Shown one piece after another: positions 20,423 to 27,788 of a DNA stretch of 64,000 nucleotides. The DNA comes from Bacteroidota bacterium. Its GTDB lineage: Bacteria; Bacteroidota; Bacteroidia; Chitinophagales; Chitinophagaceae. Made by a program: the position numbers and the translations under genes. The notes beneath the pieces were generated by a model. It saw only the letters and a program-made list of their open reading frames with translations, was not told the DNA's origin and did not search any database. The number at the start of each line of letters is the position of its first letter. Position 1 is the stretch's first letter. The stretch is from positions 114,707 through 178,706 of the forward strand of contig CANHGS010000003.1 of assembly GCA_947460595.1 (NCBI GenBank). The letters run 5' to 3'.

Positions 20423-22369
20423 ATGAAATACTTTCTTGGCTTTTGGGCCGCTTGTTTTTTATTGGTTAATACACAAGCACAACAAACGCAGAAACCACCA
20501 CTGCATGGTAAAAACTGGATGGCTATCACAGGTAAACCCCTTGCAGCCACGGCTGGCTCCCAGATTTTTCAACAAGGTGGTAATGCGGTAGACGCGGCTT
20601 GCGCCATGCTAGGTGCCACTTGCACCATGTGGGATGTATTAAGTTGGGGTGGAGAAACACAGGCCCTCATCTACAATCCTAAGACCAAGAAAGTCATTGC
20701 CATCAATGCCATGGGTGTAGCACCTACTGGCGCCACCGTGGAATTTTTTAAAAGCAAGGGATATGCATTTCCGCCAGAATATGGTCCACTAGCAGCCACC
20801 ACACCGGGCACTGTTGGCGGACTTTGTTATATGCTGAGTGAGTTTGGAACCATGAGTTTGAAACAAGTGTTGCAACCAGCCATGCAATTGGCGGCAGGTT
20901 ACCCCATTGACGCACAAACCGCCAATAGTATGGAGAAGGGCAAAGAGCTAATCAAGGGATGGCCCTATTCCAAAGCCGTATTCCTCACGCATTCTGGAGA
21001 AAAAAGAGAAGCACCCGAAGCAGGAGAAATTTTTATACAGAAAGATTTGCTAGCCACACTTAGCAAATTAGTAGAAGCAGAAACAGCCGCACTCAAAAAT
21101 AAAAAGAGCCGCAAAGAAGCCATCATGGCGGCTTATGACCGTTTTTACAAAGGCGATATTGCCAAGGAATTTGTGCGAGGCGCACAGGAACAAGGAGGAC
21201 TGATTACATTAGAAGACTTAGCCAAATGGAAGCCCCGTGTGGAAGAACCACTACACGTAAACTACAAAGGCATTGAAGTGTACAAACTATCGCAGTGGAC
21301 CCAAGGCCCCATGCTCCTACAAAGTTTGAACATGCTAGAAAATATAGACCTCAAATCTATGGGCTATAATAGCACACGCTATATTCATACGCTGTATCAG
21401 ACCATGAATATGACTTATGCAGACAGAGATTTTTATTATGGCGATCCCTATTTTCCACCAGCAGAACCCATGCAGGGATTGTTGAGCAAGGAATACGCCA
21501 GACATAGGGCCAGCCAAATTAATGCGGATAAGAACAATGCATTTGCCACACCAGGAGATCCTTATCCTTATGAAGGCAAGACCAATCCTTATTTGAGTTT
21601 GTTGCAAAAAAGAGCTGCACTAACCGATACCAGTTTGCAACAAGGAAACGCCATACCCAAACATGATCAAACTTATTTACAAATCAATAGCGGCGCTGAT
21701 TTGGCTAGGTTGTCAACTAACGCTTCTTTTCCCTTTGCTAGTGAAGAGGAAGCCTATCAAGACAGGTTATGGCGCGGCACTACAACGGTAGAAGCTGCTG
21801 ACACATCGGGCTGGGTGGTCTCTATTACCCCTAGCGGGGGATGGCTGCCAGCAACCATAGCCGGAAGAACAGGCCTAGGCATGAGCCAGCGGATGCAGAG
21901 CTTTGTGTTGGATAGCACTATTGATCCCTTTAATGTGGTGGAACCGGGCAAGCGTCCACGCGTAACGCTTACACCAAGTTTGGCATTAAGAGATGGTAAA
22001 CCCTTTTTGTGTTTTGGTGTGCAGGGTGGCGATACTCAGGATCAAAACCTGTTGCAATTTTTCTTGAACATAGTAGAGTTTGGCATGACGGTACAACAAG
22101 CATCCGAAGCGGCTAATTTTAATACCAACCAACTCTGGCTTTCACTGGGTGGTAGCAAACTCAAGGATCGCATACCCCGCGCCGGAAGTATTCTCTTACC
22201 TCGCAATGCTAGCGAAGAACTCAAAACCAGTTTGAAAAAAATGGGCTATCAAATAACCCTTGGTGACCGAACCAGCGGCCCCATCAACGCCATTTATTTT
22301 GACTGGAAACATGGCAGTCTTTGGGGTGGAAGTTCTAACAATGGAGAGGACTATGGGATTGGGTGGTAA
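20423..22369 (+). CDS. Gamma-glutamyltransferase family Ntn hydrolase
   Basis: GGNAVDAACA, TPGTVGG, FYKGDIA, GTTT nucleophile region, GKRPRVTLTP, GVQGGDTQ. Confidence 0.85.
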   Translation: MKYFLGFWAACFLLVNTQAQQTQKPPLHGKNWMAITGKPLAATAGSQIFQQGGNAVDAACAMLGATCTMWDVLSWGGETQALIYNPKTKKVIAINAMGVAPTGATVEFFKSKGYAFPPEYGPLAATTPGTVGGLCYMLSEFGTMSLKQVLQPAMQLAAGYPIDAQTANSMEKGKELIKGWPYSKAVFLTHSGEKREAPEAGEIFIQKDLLATLSKLVEAETAALKNKKSRKEAIMAAYDRFYKGDIAKEFVRGAQEQGGLITLEDLAKWKPRVEEPLHVNYKGIEVYKLSQWTQGPMLLQSLNMLENIDLKSMGYNSTRYIHTLYQTMNMTYADRDFYYGDPYFPPAEPMQGLLSKEYARHRASQINADKNNAFATPGDPYPYEGKTNPYLSLLQKRAALTDTSLQQGNAIPKHDQTYLQINSGADLARLSTNASFPFASEEEAYQDRLWRGTTTVEAADTSGWVVSITPSGGWLPATIAGRTGLGMSQRMQSFVLDSTIDPFNVVEPGKRPRVTLTPSLALRDGKPFLCFGVQGGDTQDQNLLQFFLNIVEFGMTVQQASEAANFNTNQLWLSLGGSKLKDRIPRAGSILLPRNASEELKTSLKKMGYQITLGDRTSGPINAIYFDWKHGSLWGGSSNNGEDYGIGW

Positions 22370-22375
22370 ATGAAA

Positions 22376-22450
22376 GTGAAGAGATAAGAGGGAAGAGGGA
22401 AGAGGGAAGAGATAAAAGTGAAGAGTGAAGAGTGAAGAGTGAAGAGTGAA
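22376..22450 (+). repeat. Purine-rich heptamer tandem repeat, about 11 units
   Basis: GTGAAGA GATAAGA GGGAAGA x3 GATAAAA GTGAAGA x4 GTGAA immediately after the ggt stop codon. Confidence 0.9.
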
Positions 22451-22475
22451 ATTCAAAAAAAATTACCCACTTTAA

Positions 22476-22892
22476 ATGTGGTTAACAAATATGAATCAGT
22501 TTAGTCAAATTGATACTAGATTAATAGCGCTAGCCAAACAAATTGGTGCTTCATTAGAAACAACCGTTGGTGGGCATTCTATTGATGGTATTGATGTACC
22601 AAAAGACAAACTAGCAATAAGACAAATTCAATGGATAGAAGGACCTATTGGAAAAGCAATCATCATTAATCAAAACTTTGAAAACGGCAATCTGGAAGCA
22701 CCTAACTGGGATTTTATAAATATTGCTTGGCTACTGGAAGGAAAAACCCCTGCAAAGGGAAGGCCGATATGGAATAAGTACCTATTAAAAAATATTGATT
22801 TTAGAAAAATTGAAACTGATATTGAAAAACTTTTAAAGCAGTCCTTGGAAAATTTAAATGCAGTCAAGAAAACTGATCTTAAGTATAGATAA
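22476..22892 (+). CDS. Hypothetical protein (start possibly ATG 22491)
   Basis: 138-aa ORF, AT-rich, no recognised motif. Confidence 0.6.
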   Translation: MWLTNMNQFSQIDTRLIALAKQIGASLETTVGGHSIDGIDVPKDKLAIRQIQWIEGPIGKAIIINQNFENGNLEAPNWDFINIAWLLEGKTPAKGRPIWNKYLLKNIDFRKIETDIEKLLKQSLENLNAVKKTDLKYR

Positions 22893-22949
22893 GTGTTTAC
22901 TGGTTCGTTAATCATTAGTTTTGCGCAGCATATGAGGCATACAAAAAAA

Positions 22950-23042
22950 GGCAGCATCCGCACTACCATGCACTACACCCATATAAGCATCAAAAGCCTG
23001 GGCAATATTCAAAGACCCCTAGACAGATTGAATTGGGAGTGA
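22950..23042 (+). pseudogene. C-terminal remnant of a tyrosine recombinase/integrase
   Basis: Reads GSIRTTMHYTHISIKSLGNIQRPLDRLNWE*, matching the box II tail (T-x-x-Y-T-H, then I-x-S/R-P-L-D) of Bacteroidota site-specific integrases; everything upstream of box II is missing. Confidence 0.7.
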
Positions 23043-23263
23043 CTATCAACCATACATCAACAATCTACCCCTCAACCATTCCAAACCTAGAAGTTTCCTA
23101 CCCGCCACCCAGCCCATCATACTCGCGTTTTCTTAATATCTCACTTTAATCTCCACACCTGCGCTTTTCCAATATCTCGCATCCCCTTGCAGATAGCCAT
23201 TAGTCTATCAATTCAAAGACACTCATAAATTTCTTATAGGGTTTATTTTTGATGTGATGGTTT

Positions 23264-23291
23264 TATGTACTTTTAAGCGTTGGTGGCTAGT
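23264..23291 (+). mobile_element. attI-like site / crossover at the start of cassette 1
   Basis: TATGTACTTTTAAGC-GTTGGTGGCTAGT; GTTGGTGGC (23279-87) is the reverse complement (8/9) of GCCACCAAA at 23886-94. Confidence 0.45.
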
Positions 23292-23313
23292 TTAACTCAG
23301 TCACAAATGTTTA

Positions 23314-23832
23314 ATGCATCTTTTAAAAATAAAACTTTGTCTTATGCAGCTTATAAAATTTCGGATAATATTCTTTTTGATAATTTTGTTATGTAGCTGT
23401 ACTACACTGAAACCAGTGACAAGCATAAAGAATGACACAATTCAGAAGTACAAATATTTTTATATTTCTCCTACTAACAGTTTGACTTCAAATTCAGGAG
23501 CTACAATAGGAAGTCAATTTTATTCTTCAAGTAAAAGCATAAACCCAAGTGATCTTATTACAGGTATATTATCAAAAAAGAGGTTTATAAAATTGCCTGA
23601 ACTCAAATCCGAACTATCAGAAGAAACAGTTGTTGTTAATTATGGTGAAAGTGGGAGAAGAAAAACAGGTCTCGGCGGATATACTATTGAGGTGACAATT
23701 CAAATTATTTCAGCTAAGTCAAATAAATTGATTTGTTCCTGTACTGCAGAGGGACAAGGTGAGACAGAAGCTGATGATATTAGACAAGCAATTAATCGGT
23801 GCTTAGCAGAATTATTACCAAATCAAAATTAG
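23314..23832 (+). CDS. Hypothetical lipoprotein (cassette 1 gene)
   Basis: Lipobox LLCSC; 172 aa, start possibly 23344. Confidence 0.75.
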   Translation: MHLLKIKLCLMQLIKFRIIFFLIILLCSCTTLKPVTSIKNDTIQKYKYFYISPTNSLTSNSGATIGSQFYSSSKSINPSDLITGILSKKRFIKLPELKSELSEETVVVNYGESGRRKTGLGGYTIEVTIQIISAKSNKLICSCTAEGQGETEADDIRQAINRCLAELLPNQN

Positions 23833-23885
23833 AAATTAATAAGTTCAAATAAATTGAAACAATAGTTTGGATACCCAAAGTACAA

Positions 23886-24036
23886 GCCACCAAAATTAGG
23901 CTTTGCACAATTTGTGCTTCCACTTTAGCCCTTCAACTTTTGTTATTTCTTATCAACTTCAGTAATTTGGCTTTAGCTAATCGGGGCATTAGAATCACAG
24001 ATTATCCAAACTGAGCAAAGCTCTGAACGTTAGCGG
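23886..24036 (+). mobile_element. Complete attC-like imperfect inverted repeat (151 bp)
   Basis: GCCACCAAA-ATTA-GGCTTTGCACAATTT ... AAACTGAGCAAAGCT-CTGAAC-GTTAGCGG; arms 23899-913 / 24008-022 are 12/15 complementary; inner TTTGTGCTTC / GAATCACAGA 8/10. Confidence 0.62.
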
Positions 24037-24108
24037 TCATGCTTACAGACGCTCTACAAACATGAGAAGATATTTGAAAAAGATTTCAATTTTTCGTAAA
24101 TTCACTTA

Positions 24109-24642
24109 GTGAAAAAGAACAAGCTAATTTATCTGGACTTTGAGGTCGACAAGCTCACCAATTCGATTGAAAATGTAATTTCAGGCGAAGTTTTTGATAC
24201 CTTGATTGTAAAACTAAGACCCGCAGACGGCAAAAGTATTAAGAAAGGAGAATGGGGTTTTAATTGGCACAATGAACTTAAAGACAAGACAAAGCAAGTT
24301 TATAAGTTGTCTACAGTTAATAACCCAACAATTATTCATGGACTTATTAGTTTGACAGACAAAGGTGACCATATTTTTATGGATTTGATAGAAAGTGCAA
24401 AATTCAACAAAGGTAAAAACAAACTTTATAGAGGTGTTGCTGGAAATCTTGTTGCTTTTGGTTGTAAAATGTCATTTGAATCAAATTATGACGGGGTAGT
24501 TTCTTTTGTAGCCAAGACCCAACTTGTTGCTCATTATGAACAAACTTTGGGAGCAAAATTTTTTGGTGGTAATCGTATGTTCATTGACACTAAAGAAGCA
24601 TTTATTTTAACAACAAAATATTTTAAAGACAATAAACTATGA
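24109..24642 (+). CDS. Hypothetical protein with GNAT-like features (cassette 2)
   Basis: GTG start, 177 aa; DHIFMDLIESA, YRGVAGNLVAFGCKMS, LVAHYEQTLGA. Confidence 0.7.
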   Translation: MKKNKLIYLDFEVDKLTNSIENVISGEVFDTLIVKLRPADGKSIKKGEWGFNWHNELKDKTKQVYKLSTVNNPTIIHGLISLTDKGDHIFMDLIESAKFNKGKNKLYRGVAGNLVAFGCKMSFESNYDGVVSFVAKTQLVAHYEQTLGAKFFGGNRMFIDTKEAFILTTKYFKDNKL

Positions 24643-24803
24643 TAAACTTCAAAAAAATGGACGACAAAGACTTTGTGTTTGTAAACAAGCCTTTAAGCGC
24701 CAAAGAAGAAAAAGAATTTAGTGATTTTCTAAAGTCACGCAAGAGGAAAACAAGGCGTATAGGACTACCGAAAAAAATTAAGAAAGAAAAATTGGTTATT
24801 TAA
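24639..24803 (+). CDS. Small 54-aa basic protein, not in the ORF track
   Basis: ATGA overlap with upstream stop; MINFKKMDDKDFVFVNKPLSAKEEKEFSDFLKSRKRKTRRIGLPKKIKKEKLVI*. Confidence 0.6.
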   Translation: MINFKKMDDKDFVFVNKPLSAKEEKEFSDFLKSRKRKTRRIGLPKKIKKEKLVI

Positions 24804-24861
24804 TTGGGAGTCAGAAGCTAGGTTGAAAAACCGAAAAGGAACAAACTTCAAAGCAAAAAGT

Positions 24862-24882
24862 CCTCCCCTAACATAAGGCTTT
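24862..24882 (+). mobile_element. Truncated attC-like left half-site
   Basis: CCTCCCCTAACATAAGGCTTT; 15-mer CTAACATAAGGCTTT identical to 25409-25423. Confidence 0.5.
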
Positions 24883-24912
24883 TCCGTAATTAAAAATAAC
24901 AACCATCAACTT

Positions 24913-25392
24913 ATGAAACCTTTGACTTTATTATTAGCCATTTTGGGATTTTCATTTTATTCAAATGGACAGACAAGTTTTAAAAGAAACGACATTTATT
25001 TAGAAGCTGGCGGTAATGGGCTTTTTTCGTCCATTAATTATGAGAGACAATTGACAAAACAACCTGGGCTTGGGTTTAGACTTGGTATTGGATTTTACGC
25101 TGAAAAAGCATTTTACTTGACAATACCAGTTGGAATCAACTATCTTTTCAAATTAAAAAATAACAAATCTTTTATTGATGCAGGACTTGGAGCAACTTGG
25201 ACTAGAATTGACGGAAACTTATTCGGAGACTCAAAAAATTCTACCGGTGACCATTTTGTAAACTTCGCTCCAAGTATTGGTTACAGAAGACACACAACTA
25301 AAGATGTAATGTGGCGTATTAGTATTACACCTATTGCTAACAAATATGGTTTAGTTCCTTGGTTGGGGTTTTCAATTGGAAAAAGATTTTAA
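24913..25392 (+). CDS. Small outer-membrane beta-barrel-like protein (cassette 3)
   Basis: Signal peptide, alternating beta-strand pattern (IYLEAGGNG, INYERQL), C-terminal Phe. Confidence 0.7.
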   Translation: MKPLTLLLAILGFSFYSNGQTSFKRNDIYLEAGGNGLFSSINYERQLTKQPGLGFRLGIGFYAEKAFYLTIPVGINYLFKLKNNKSFIDAGLGATWTRIDGNLFGDSKNSTGDHFVNFAPSIGYRRHTTKDVMWRISITPIANKYGLVPWLGFSIGKRF

Positions 25393-25402
25393 TAAATAAT
25401 AA

Positions 25403-25433
25403 CCTCGGCTAACATAAGGCTTTGTGCAAATTT
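25403..25433 (+). mobile_element. Truncated attC-like left half-site
   Basis: CCTCGGCTAACATAAGGCTTTGTGCAAATTT, similar to the left arm at 23886-23913. Confidence 0.5.
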
Positions 25434-25519
25434 TAAAATTTTAAATTAAAAAACTGCTTGAATGCGAGGGGCGTTTTGAGATTACCATAAATACAATAGC
25501 CAAAGACTAAAAGAAAAAT

Positions 25520-26104
25520 ATGAAAATGGGAATAATCTTACTTATAGTAGTCCTTATAGCATTCACAGTTGTCCAACTTTATTTTATACTTGGACAAAGA
25601 AATATTGAAACATACCCCTATGTTGTTAAAAGAAAATATAAGCTATTTGAAATAAGGACTTATGCAACTACTTTATTTACCTCAGTCAAACTCTCTACAA
25701 AAGGATATAAAAATTCTTCCAGTAAAGGTTTCTCTATTCTAGCGGGATATATTTTTGGAAATAATGAAAGGAATGAAAAAATAGCTATGACTTCTCCGGT
25801 CTCCATGTCATTAGGTGATTCCACAACCATGATGTTTATGGTTCCTAAGAAATTTAATAAAGACATGCTTCCTAAGCCTAATCAATCAGGTATAGAATTT
25901 AAGGAAGAGGCTTCAAAAACCGTTGCTGCAATCAGGTTTGACGGTTGGGCTAGTGATACTAAAATAGAGAAATATCAACAGCAATTAAAAGCAGCTTTAG
26001 ATGCAGCAGGTATAAAGTATTCTAATCAATTTTATTTTTGGGGCTATAATGCTCCTTTTGAAGTTTTTAATCGAAAAAATGAAGTGATAGTTGAATTGCA
26101 ATAA
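25520..26104 (+). CDS. SOUL heme-binding family protein
   Basis: IETYPYVV, FEIRTY, GFSILAGYIFGNN, KIAMTSPV, MMFMVP, GYNAPF, RKNEV. Confidence 0.88.
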   Translation: MKMGIILLIVVLIAFTVVQLYFILGQRNIETYPYVVKRKYKLFEIRTYATTLFTSVKLSTKGYKNSSSKGFSILAGYIFGNNERNEKIAMTSPVSMSLGDSTTMMFMVPKKFNKDMLPKPNQSGIEFKEEASKTVAAIRFDGWASDTKIEKYQQQLKAALDAAGIKYSNQFYFWGYNAPFEVFNRKNEVIVELQ

Positions 26105-26161
26105 AATACTCTTACAATATATAACTAGGAGTTAATCGTATTACTTATAATTTAAGAGATA

Positions 26162-27487
26162 ATGAAAAGAAGAAGCTTTATTAAAAACGCATCCCTAACG
26201 GCTTTGGGCATAAGCGCCTTTGGCATCATGGACTCCTATAGTAAAAGTTCTGTCTTTGGCAATAATCTCAAAGTGAATGGCAAACGTATTGAAAACCGCA
26301 TTTTTGAATTGGCAAAATTTGGTCTAGATGAAAAGGGTCATGGCACCCGAGTGGCCTATACAAAAGCGGATATGGAAGGCCGTGCCTGGTTTATTGAGCT
26401 CATGAAAAAAGCAGGGCTTAACCCAAGCATTGATACAGCTGGTAATATCATCGGCAAACGCAAAGGAAAAAACAATTCACTCAAACCCATTGGTTTTGGT
26501 TCACATATTGACATGGTGCCAGATGGTGGAAATTATGATGGCACGTTGGGTTCTATAGGTGCATTGGAAGTAATTGAAATATTAAATGAAAACAATGTGG
26601 TTACCGAACATCCTCTGGAACTGATCATTTTTAGCAATGAAGAAGGGGGTACCATTGGCAGTAAAGCCATGGTGGGCGATATAACAAGCGAAGGATTGCT
26701 ACAGAAAAGTCAAATGGGCTTAACCATGGCTGAAGGTATTAAAGCCATTGGTGGCAATCCCGAGCATATTCAAGCCTGCATTAGAAAAAAAGGCGATATA
26801 CACGCATGGGTGGAATTGCATATAGAGCAAGGCGGTGTATTAGAAAAGGAAAACATCCAGATTGGTGTAGTAGAAGGTATTGTTGGAATTGTACATTGGG
26901 AAGTAACGGTAGAAGGTTTTGCCAATCATGCAGGTGCTACACAAATGAACATGCGGCAGGACGCTTTGCTGGCTGCCTCTAAATTTATTATTGCCGTTAA
27001 TGAAGTGATCACTAGTGTAAAAGGAACACAGGTTGGAACGGTTGGAAAAATTGCAGTGCAGCCCGGCGCATATAATGTGATTCCAGGTAAAGCAATCTTA
27101 GGTTTAGAAATCCGCGATTTATCAGCTGATAAAATTGAAATGCTATTTAAGCAAATTGAAAATCGCGCAGCAACCATTGCCAAAGAGTATAAAACTAAAA
27201 TTAGTTTTATACGGCAAGCCAATGAATCAAAACCTGCATTAACGGATAAAAAGTTACAGCAAACCATTAATGCTAATGCCAAAATATTGGGCTTTACCAC
27301 CAAGTTAATGCAAAGTGGAGCCGGCCACGATTCGCAGCATATTGCAGCAATTGCACCGTCTTCTATGATTTTTATTCCGAGTGTGGGCGGCATCAGTCAT
27401 TCACCCAAAGAATTTTCAAAGGCATTAGATATGGAGAATGGAGCCAATCTGTTATTACAAACAATACTGTCCATTGACAGAACTTAA
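26162..27487 (+). CDS. M20 Zn-dependent amidohydrolase (N-carbamoyl-amino acid / allantoate amidohydrolase family), Tat-like signal
   Basis: MKRRSFIK; GSHIDMVPDGGNYDG, NEEG, ELHIEQG, SGAGHDSQ, GGISHSPKE. Confidence 0.88.
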   Translation: MKRRSFIKNASLTALGISAFGIMDSYSKSSVFGNNLKVNGKRIENRIFELAKFGLDEKGHGTRVAYTKADMEGRAWFIELMKKAGLNPSIDTAGNIIGKRKGKNNSLKPIGFGSHIDMVPDGGNYDGTLGSIGALEVIEILNENNVVTEHPLELIIFSNEEGGTIGSKAMVGDITSEGLLQKSQMGLTMAEGIKAIGGNPEHIQACIRKKGDIHAWVELHIEQGGVLEKENIQIGVVEGIVGIVHWEVTVEGFANHAGATQMNMRQDALLAASKFIIAVNEVITSVKGTQVGTVGKIAVQPGAYNVIPGKAILGLEIRDLSADKIEMLFKQIENRAATIAKEYKTKISFIRQANESKPALTDKKLQQTINANAKILGFTTKLMQSGAGHDSQHIAAIAPSSMIFIPSVGGISHSPKEFSKALDMENGANLLLQTILSIDRT

Positions 27488-27788
27488 GGCAAGGATTTAA
27501 ATTAGCCTACGTACTTTAAAAAGTTGGCTACCACCCCAGAGGAGAAGACTTTTTAATGAAAGTGTAGTATAACAAATTGTTTTGTCTACAATTTAAACGC
27601 TTGCAAGATATCTAATACAAACACTAGGGTTCATCTTAGAGCAAATGCTAAGAATGATTTGATTTATAATTAAAAAATAAATATTAAACGGGAAGTTTCT
27701 TTTTTTGTGGAGAAGACTGCCGATTTTACCACCAAAGCAGAAGCTGAAAAAAAGGAAAATTTGCCTAAGATGCCACTTTCTTAATGTT

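Follow-up and report, generated by a model that had tools for sequence, protein, structure and literature searches.

The results of our analysis indicate that a 64,000-nucleotide stretch of the genome of a Bacteroidota bacterium of the Chitinophagaceae (assembly GCA_947460595.1, contig CANHGS010000003.1, positions 114,707 to 178,706), hereafter the window and numbered from its first letter, very probably holds at positions 23280-24029 a single gene cassette of an integron-like platform that is common in Chitinophagaceae, and that this locus is now a relic. On the sequence evidence given below we estimate the probability of this reading at about 0.9. The cassette, hereafter cassette 1, would once have been a circle. 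The tyrosine recombinase of the platform would have joined its folded site (attC), opened at G^TT in the R' box (the caret marks the crossover point), to the platform attI site (…TTTAAGYG^TT). The resulting linear cassette would carry its own R' tail TTGGTGGCTAGT first and its own R'' box (…AGCCACCAAA), L'', the centre, L' and the crossover G last, and the TT and tail that follow this G would be a property of the next cassette; an own R' tail at the start of the array would then derive from a circle that recombined at G^TT with attI. Our data document the two junctions of cassette 1, the membership of its site in an attC family, and both an offset rule and covariation in relatives. The circle reading for this cassette has four independent lines in its favor, namely the attI junction, the attC family, the offset rule in a congener and a copy of the gene with the same ends elsewhere. 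The features concerned are the following.

22893-23042, plus strand: stub of a tyrosine recombinase gene, its last ~43 codons, in the same direction as the cassettes
23043-23279, plus strand: decayed attI region, with the core ATGTACTTTTAAGCG at 23265-23279 ending in the crossover G
23280-24029, plus strand: cassette 1, 750 bp, complete (R' tail, lipoprotein gene, attC to the crossover G)
23280-23291, plus strand: R' tail TTGGTGGCTAGT, complementary to the R'' of the same cassette 1
23344-23832, plus strand: lipoprotein gene, 162 amino acids from the ATG at 23344 (the mechanical open reading frame begins at 23314), lipobox …LLCSC
23882-24035, plus strand: attC1, the site of cassette 1 (nhmmer 129.8 bits, E = 1.5e-37)
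5' part of attC1: R'' ACAAGCCACCAAA at 23882-23894, spacer ATTA at 23895-23898, L'' GGCTTTGCACAATTTG at 23899-23914
Centre of attC1: branched, with an 18-nt deletion
3' part of attC1: L' CCAAACTGAGCAAAGC at 24006-24021, spacer TCTGAAC at 24022-24028, crossover G^TT at 24029^24030, hybrid R' GTTAGCG

Ends and junctions of cassette 1

The sequence-only reading had reported that GTTGGTGGCTAGT (23279-23291) and the reverse complement of ACAAGCCACCAAA (23882-23894) agree at 11/13 positions, and this holds: both strings lie at these coordinates, and the agreement is unique among the 2,199 GTT sites of the window. When the GTT/AAC triplet is left out, 9/10 positions of the ends are complementary. In a chance test each GTT on both strands was scored against ACAAGCCACC, with a cut-off of 9/10 and the triplet excluded; only the 23279 site itself reached the cut-off in the window (1/2,199), as did 3 of the 126,704 GTT sites of the whole genome. 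The complementarity of the ends of cassette 1 is real and not due to chance. The left junction reads …ACTTTTAAGCG^TTGGTGGCTAGT… (23269-23291) and at the right end …ACAAGCCACCAAA is followed directly by ATTAGGCTTTGC… (23882-23905). One of the two mismatches, at position three counted from the outer end, is A/A and lies in a column that is never Watson-Crick in 12/12 members of the attC family described below, and the other lies in the triplet, with AAA where AAC is expected. Since the A/A mismatch sits on a column of the R stem that never forms a Watson-Crick pair, AAA for AAC is the sole real defect of the R pairing in the window.

Folding of the bottom strand of the in-silico circle (23880-24029 joined to 23280-23292), a check proposed together with the original observation, gave -24.2 kcal/mol and a structure made up of a 9-bp R stem, an asymmetric spacer and an L stem, versus -15.9 kcal/mol and no R stem for attC1 with the tail that is present in the array. 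Combined with 600 other GTT tails from the window, attC1 reached a mean of -16.2 kcal/mol (standard deviation 1.3), and one of the 600 was as low as the circle with its own tail. For cassette 1, opening at G^TT is borne out by an own R' at the start and an own R'' at the end.

On the left side, the core that ends at the junction, TTTAAGCG^TT, is the counterpart of GCGTATATTTAAGTG^TT, which lies 120-210 nt past the recombinase stop in 11/13 Sediminibacterium-type loci and is followed by a different sequence each time; the window core GTACTTTTAAGCG^TT lies 238 nt past the stop of the stub. Among nine loci the identity of attI is 0.92 to the left of the G, 0.39 over the next 7 nt (+3 to +9) and 0.30 beyond. 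Because the window core matches the attI core of relatives, and because identity breaks at G^TT, 23279^23280 is to be regarded, on sequence grounds, as the junction of attI with a cassette. The arrangement is that of integrons, with attI adjoining the integrase gene and insertion at G^TT. Rather than running unbroken across the junctions, similarity to relatives shows breakpoints, and these fall at G^TT.

The stub in front of attI is readable as the C-terminal end of a tyrosine recombinase. Its translation (22893-23042) ends in …AQHMRHTKKGSIRTTMHYTHISIKSLGNIQRPLDRLNWE followed by the stop, and retains the box II His, the catalytic Tyr and an IntI-like S/RPLD tail (…AQHMRH…TTMHYTHI…RPLDRL…stop). 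The sole NCBIfam match of the stub is TIGR02249, integron integrase, at positions 290-315 of 315, that is, the last 26 (E = 0.059), and residues 288-313 of the intact recombinase of a congener match window positions 22953-23030 in tblastn with 50% identity (E = 0.012).

The attC family and the recombinase of related platforms

A direct-repeat search over 22300-45000 revealed no attC family within the window, because the sites present there are too diverged or truncated. The family emerged only when the genomes of relatives were searched with window positions 21500-27500, namely from the genome of a congener. In this complete genome (G018), window 23878-24059 matches at least 14 co-oriented sites lying 0.6-1.1 kb apart. 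The family is a ~170-nt repeat that runs from …AAC-AWAA-GGCTTTGCGCAATTTGG… to …CCAAACTGCGCAAAGCC-TGGGAC-GTT, while the bases that flank AAC on the left and GTT on the right vary; 13 family copies of G018 have an anchor spacing of exactly 153 nt. Window attC1 aligns with the family over its whole length, minus the 18-nt central deletion and with AAA for AAC. Compared with 14 family members, its identity is 0.80 in the last 30 nt up to G^TT, falls to 0.55 across the tail and to 0.39 past it, and at its 5' end is 0.80 inside and 0.30 outside. With the family profile attC1 scores 129.8 bits; contig C2 of this genome has an intact copy with 180 bits; other copies lie downstream of the recombinase gene in four Sediminibacterium records (L038, L045, L047, L079), and weak matches are seen in Lacibacter.

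The array of G018 follows an offset rule. In all ten adjacent pairs the R' tail of one site is complementary to the R'' of the next site at 6-9/10 positions, compared with 1-6 for the R'' of the same site, and in 10/10 cassettes a site with its own tail has a bottom-strand energy that is 4-11 kcal/mol lower than that of the hybrid site. The first cassette of G018 ends in R'' GGCTGCTAAC, the exact complement of the cassette start. A cassette 5' end complementary to its own R'', as in integrons, is present both in window cassette 1 (9/10) and in the congener (10/10 adjacent pairs). Over 27 loci, strict offset pairs (at least 11/12) number 86 downstream versus 31 upstream of the recombinase, with at least one in 25/27 loci; by a looser count (9/10 including the triplet) the downstream and upstream regions are not separable. 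As a separate observation, identical attC copies occur ~13.2-13.4 kb apart in G018 (989890/1003069 and 992631/1006047 on its contig C1; loci L018 and L019), which shows a duplication within this array.

The pairing of the R boxes was further evaluated in an alignment of 12 reconstituted sites from the window, G018, contig C2 of the same genome as the window and S. salmoneum. In the 13-bp R stem 85.9% of cells pair and 8/13 pairs change on both sides; the covariation score is reached by 0/500 shuffles, and sliding the partner by 1-3 columns reduces pairing to 21-42%. Folding of reconstituted family sites yields R and L stems and energies of -30 to -39 kcal/mol. The alignment and the consensus fold present the R''/L''/L'/R' repeats, AAC…GTT and the folded single strand of integron sites. 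Both stems, R and L, have one column in which no member forms a Watson-Crick pair on the top strand; in all members (L stem) or most of them (R stem) this column is an A/C mismatch, to which a G/T wobble corresponds on the bottom strand. The predicted folds contain a continuous 18-bp L stem without single-base bulges, and hence none of the extrahelical bases that guide the choice of strand at integron sites and are recognized by the I2 domain of the integrase, their predicted asymmetry residing in a 4-nt/2-nt internal loop and in the two non-Watson-Crick columns of the top strand. Such bulge-free folds, as modeled, would fit an enzyme lacking the IntI-specific domain. The mechanism would presumably be single-stranded and act on the bottom strand.

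Just upstream of the array, and in the same orientation, G018 has an intact gene for a tyrosine recombinase of 321 amino acids. Members of its family share 67-95% identity over 80 loci, from Sediminibacterium, Ferruginibacter, Lacibacter, Flavisolibacter, Niabella, Terrimonas, Ginsengibacter and other Chitinophagaceae; a large number of these loci stop at a contig edge right behind the recombinase gene. We infer that this adjacent Xer-like recombinase is the acting enzyme. It has all catalytic residues and an IntI-like SPLD tail, and scores 201 bits with the XerA model, 180 with the integron-integrase model TIGR02249 (179.8; cut-off 265) and 174 with XerC. The TIGR02249 match covers positions 2-179 and 240-315 only. 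Relative to VchIntIA (2a3v) the enzyme has 25 residues opposite residues 182-246, being ~40 residues shorter exactly at the place of the IntI-specific domain, whereas it is colinear with XerA. In the paper on 2a3v this segment reportedly holds the residues that read extrahelical bases. The IntI-specific additional domain around patch III is missing from the intact relatives, and the window stub is unreadable at this place. A structure model (pLDDT, the predicted local distance difference test score, of 68.9, ~80 in the domain region) has short strands only between helices 204-216 and 237-250, and a fold search with this mediocre model returned XerA first and then IntI4, with low template-modeling scores. 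Public annotation names the family XerD or tyrosine recombinase, never integron integrase. The enzyme does not fit the Xer/dif arrangement either, in which a recombinase for chromosomal dimer resolution uses a short dif site close to the terminus: the genome has separate XerC/D-like genes, and the family always precedes an attI core with arrays.

Several observations concern the region between recombinase and array. After the recombinase stop, G018 has four copies of the 21-nt motif CGACAATACAAAATRTATAAC and then …GCGTATATTTAAGTG^TTAGCAGCC. The motif has a palindromic core, ATACAAAATGTAT; in 50/80 loci across genera, 1-4 copies of it fill part of the interval from the recombinase stop to the attI core (for example L037 6982-7108, plus 49 other loci), whereas the decayed attI of the window has none; the motif may be a putative binding site of the recombinase or of a regulator. 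The attI of the window contains two 18-nt direct repeats, at 23125-23142 (GCGTTTTCTTAATATCTC) and 23161-23178 (GCGCTTTTCCAATATCTC), which by eye are 14/18 identical. The attI core TATATTTAAG (in the window TACTTTTAAG, 23265-23279) resembles the -7 promoter element of Bacteroidota, TAnnTTTG, and could on this resemblance be a putative promoter driving the first cassette.

The gene of cassette 1 provides the last line of evidence. It belongs to a widespread Bacteroidota family of lipoproteins (1,334 homologues, the best 76-77% identical, mostly of 162 amino acids) with a faint resemblance to Pfam DUF4136 that remains below cut-off (E = 0.029). Two metagenome contigs (L034 and L035) carry a copy that is 77% identical, together with both ends of the window cassette, GTTGGTGGC… and …CCACCAAC. 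In these contigs the cassette start GTTGGTGGCAAGTTTAG stands before the homologous gene; the sequence ahead of the gene reads …TTTTTGAG^TTGGTGGCAAGTTTAG and that behind it …CCCACCAAC-ATTA-GGTTTGCC…; their R'' retains the canonical AAC, and their attC is of another family, which is also found in the G018 array and in L115. Because these copies carry both ends, the lipoprotein gene thus seems to travel with the same two R boxes. The proposal to look for breakpoints around homologues of this gene was accordingly informative for L034 and L035, but not for most homologues, which are ordinary chromosomal genes in which similarity ends within the coding sequence.

The remaining array and its decay

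Cassette 1 lies in a low-GC island of small co-oriented genes (22.4-26.1 kb; GC content 0.32-0.34 versus ~0.45 upstream) that is flanked by a gamma-glutamyltranspeptidase gene and an M20 peptidase gene. Beyond attC1 the island holds the remains of two other cassettes.

24030-24885, plus strand: cassette 2, beginning TTAGCGGTCATG, a two-gene unit (24109-24642 and 24639-24803)
attC2 stub of cassette 2: R'' GTCCTCCCCTAAC at 24860-24872, ATAA, then GGCTTTTCC to 24885
24886-25431, plus strand: cassette 3, cut at both ends, with an intact beta-barrel-like gene (24913-25392)
attC3 remnant: R'' AACCTCGGCTAAC at 25400-25412, ATAA, then L'' GGCTTTGTGCAAATT to ~25431

The motif AAMATWAGGCTTT has three copies in the island, each directly after a gene (23892, 24870 and 25411), and only 8 occurrences in the 3.66-Mb genome. 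A counterpart of the gene pair of cassette 2, 57% identical, lies 4.3 kb downstream of the recombinase in L051, the first cassettes of which follow the offset rule. In this same groundwater metagenome-assembled genome (L051 8560-9500) an opposite-strand gene interrupts the array inside an attC-like site and, by eye, resembles an insertion sequence. In cassette 3 the gene has 79% amino acid identity to the first cassette of the platform of Sediminibacterium salmoneum NBRC 103935 (L079 7103-7579); similarity begins at GTAATT (24886), runs to the start of L'' and is absent beyond ~25431. This alignment shows a joint loss in the window, of the 3' part of attC2 and of the first ~6 nt of cassette 3. 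A candidate 3' part of attC3 (…AAACTGC…GGGGCGTT, ~25455-25474) was considered as L'-R' and rejected, for the S. salmoneum site has nothing equivalent and the segment fails to pair with L''. Minimum free energy (MFE) folding gave no signal for the sites as they stand in the array, that of cassette 3 included, and Rfam returned nothing relevant, with one sub-threshold match to a small nucleolar RNA at 25438-25519 (E = 0.79).

At the borders of the island other features were noted. Right after the gamma-glutamyltranspeptidase gene, 22370-22450 is a purine-rich tandem array of 7-mers (GAAGAGG/GAAGAGT, with a 14-nt super-period), copies of which, 83-88% alike, are found on contigs C2, C17 and C18 and elsewhere on C3 of the same genome. 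Between this array and the recombinase stub lies an open reading frame of 138 amino acids without family match (22476-22892); it ends exactly where the frame of the stub begins, and so marks or fills the deletion that took most of the recombinase gene. The low-GC stretch also includes a gene of the SOUL haem-binding family (25520-26104, E = 3.9e-46), which lies immediately past the truncated attC3 and has no attC after it.

The decay of the locus is evident from the recombinase reduced to ~43 codons, the change of AAC to AAA and the 18-nt deletion in attC1, and the reduction of attC2 and attC3 to their first ~25-30 nt. No orthologue of the platform recombinase is present in the genome, the best tblastn matches being XerC/D-like proteins with 28-29% identity. 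As the genome lacks this enzyme and holds only further relics, the array of the window is a frozen relic. One of these further relics, C2:59313-60119, adjoins a transfer RNA gene and presents the attI core …TTTAAGTG^TAAGTGGC… (with GTA for GTT), a two-gene toxin-antitoxin-like cassette with an intact attC of 167 nt (180 bits), and then another cassette; the cassette that comes first in this relic is also the first one of L038. The other, C1:312892, is an attI core that stands alone but is well preserved, ACGTATATTTAAGTG^TTGTAGCC; neither a recombinase nor an attC lies nearby. The window is one of three decayed relics of the platform in this genome. The cassette mobility claimed by the sequence-only reading consequently applies to the past and not to the present, the genome being devoid of the recombinase and R'' having lost its AAC.

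Alternative explanations and biological meaning

Some results weigh against a cassette origin of 23280-24029. By MFE folding, attC1 as it stands in the array is no better than shuffles (z = -0.46 to -0.76), and its R'' ends in AAA while the conserved triplet is AAC. The nearest homologues of the lipoprotein gene (L033, L036 and L028; 76-77% nucleotide identity) lie in ordinary non-cassette contexts, with similarity restricted to 23353-23830; L034 and L035 could represent an orthologous locus and not an independent insertion; and presence/absence polymorphism of cassette 1 was not found. The offset pairing of cassette 2, previously advanced as the strongest argument for mobility, is of no help: the match of GTTAGCGG at 24029 with CCCCTAAC at 24865-24872 exists (7/8), but it lies at background level, since 7/8 is reached by 23% of non-cognate R'/R'' pairs of the family (cognate pairs have 8/8 in 9/10 cases), and it drops to 7/13 over 13 nt. 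The R'' of the cassette 2 stub is therefore only a putative own R'' of that cassette.

One alternative is that the complementarity arose by chance beside an ordinary intergenic repeat, of the repetitive extragenic palindromic type or a terminator, without any cassette history. The lack of a significant fold for the in-array site, the many weak matches that AT-rich DNA yields and the noise of the looser 10-mer statistic downstream versus upstream of the recombinase would all be compatible with it. Yet the rarity of comparable sites (1/2,199 in the window, 3/126,704 in the genome), the single null tail in 600 that folds as well, the covariation in relatives and the same gene with the same ends elsewhere render this explanation exceedingly improbable. 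We attach equally little credence to the 13-mers being terminal inverted repeats of a small transposon, or an element resembling a miniature inverted-repeat transposable element, carrying the lipoprotein gene. A single gene flanked by inverted repeats would look like one, but the right repeat is inside a 150-nt site whose family is arrayed head to tail instead of as inverted pairs, the left one adjoins a conserved attI core, neighboring units show an offset pairing that transposon ends do not give, and neither a transposase nor a target duplication was seen.

A different question is whether the locus derives from a canonical integron, the lost recombinase having been a true IntI with the additional domain, of which the short enzymes of relatives would not be counterparts. 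The stub's only family match is to the extreme C-terminus of TIGR02249, its S/RPLD tail is IntI-like, and the part that would bear the domain is deleted in the window and so cannot be read. However, every intact recombinase found beside the same attI and attC has 290-321 amino acids (conserved part) and is ~40 residues short at 182-246, and no protein above the TIGR02249 cut-off exists in six genomes (G000, G018, G010, G019, G022 and G024); a canonical integron therefore appears very unlikely. Cassette 1 is integron-like in its logic, yet the platform fails integron membership on the integrase domain.

Among known systems, the sedentary chromosomal integrons, such as the Vibrio cholerae superintegron with its attC of the VCR type, have in common with the Chitinophagaceae platform a recombinase gene by attI, the G^TT crossover, long co-oriented arrays of mostly single-gene cassettes, species-homogeneous attC sites of the form R''-L''…L'-R', cassette starts complementary to their own R'', and toxin-antitoxin and hypothetical cargo. 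They differ in host phylum, here Bacteroidota, and in the recombinase, which in the relatives lacks the IntI-specific domain. The platform attC also differs, with 150-195 nt, an R stem of 10-14 bp, an L stem of 18 bp, a branched centre and, instead of predicted extrahelical bulges, two positions with A/C on the top strand that pair as G/T wobbles on the bottom one. The reverse-orientation integrons of the Treponema denticola type resemble the platform in that the recombinase gene points to the array, with attI past its 3' end, but their enzymes are IntIs with the additional domain, which the Chitinophagaceae enzyme is not; reverse orientation is typical of the IntIs of Spirochaetota. The enzyme scores with the XerA, XerC and XerD models as well as with IntI, and XerA is its best structural match; unlike the platform sites, however, the dif and pdif sites of Xer systems are ~28 bp long and double-stranded, with no long hairpin, offset complementarity or attI array. 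The window locus itself, with one complete attC, two stubs and no intact recombinase, may be compared with a CALIN, defined as a cluster of attC sites without integron integrase (Cury et al. 2016, IntegronFinder) and recognized by at least two attC sites with no integrase in reach. Such short cassette clusters without working integrase are interpreted as degraded integrons; unlike them, the window keeps a recombinase stub and the attI junction, and one of its three attC sites is complete.

In published surveys a single complete integron was reported for Bacteroidetes, in Salinibacter ruber (IntegronFinder 2.0), and reviews count Bacteroidota among the integron-bearing phyla without detail. The additional domain is stated to define IntIs (10.1101/2022.02.06.479319; also elsewhere). 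In the full-text literature on integrons together with Chitinophagaceae or Sediminibacterium we found no description of platforms of this kind. Because the enzyme lacks the defining domain and is annotated as XerD, standard searches would at best call these platforms integrase-less clusters.

Offset complementarity is the classical footprint of integron cassettes as circles opened at G^TT, and its presence with covariation in the array of a congener indicates that the same logic works in Bacteroidota. The copy in the window, though a dead relic, is valuable for its clean attI junction with a complete first cassette, and the platform renders the need for the I2 domain and for extrahelical bases in cassette recombination directly testable. 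We consider it an evenly balanced proposition that the Chitinophagaceae harbor a widespread and as yet undescribed lineage of platforms, in which an enzyme with an IntI-like tail and no I2 domain acts on long attC sites without extrahelical bases, the choice of strand being made via bottom-strand G/T wobbles and the asymmetric spacer. If this were true, cassettes could recombine without the I2 domain, which is regarded as essential for the process, and the platform would be related to integrons, as their sister or ancestral form, or else would have arisen convergently from Xer.

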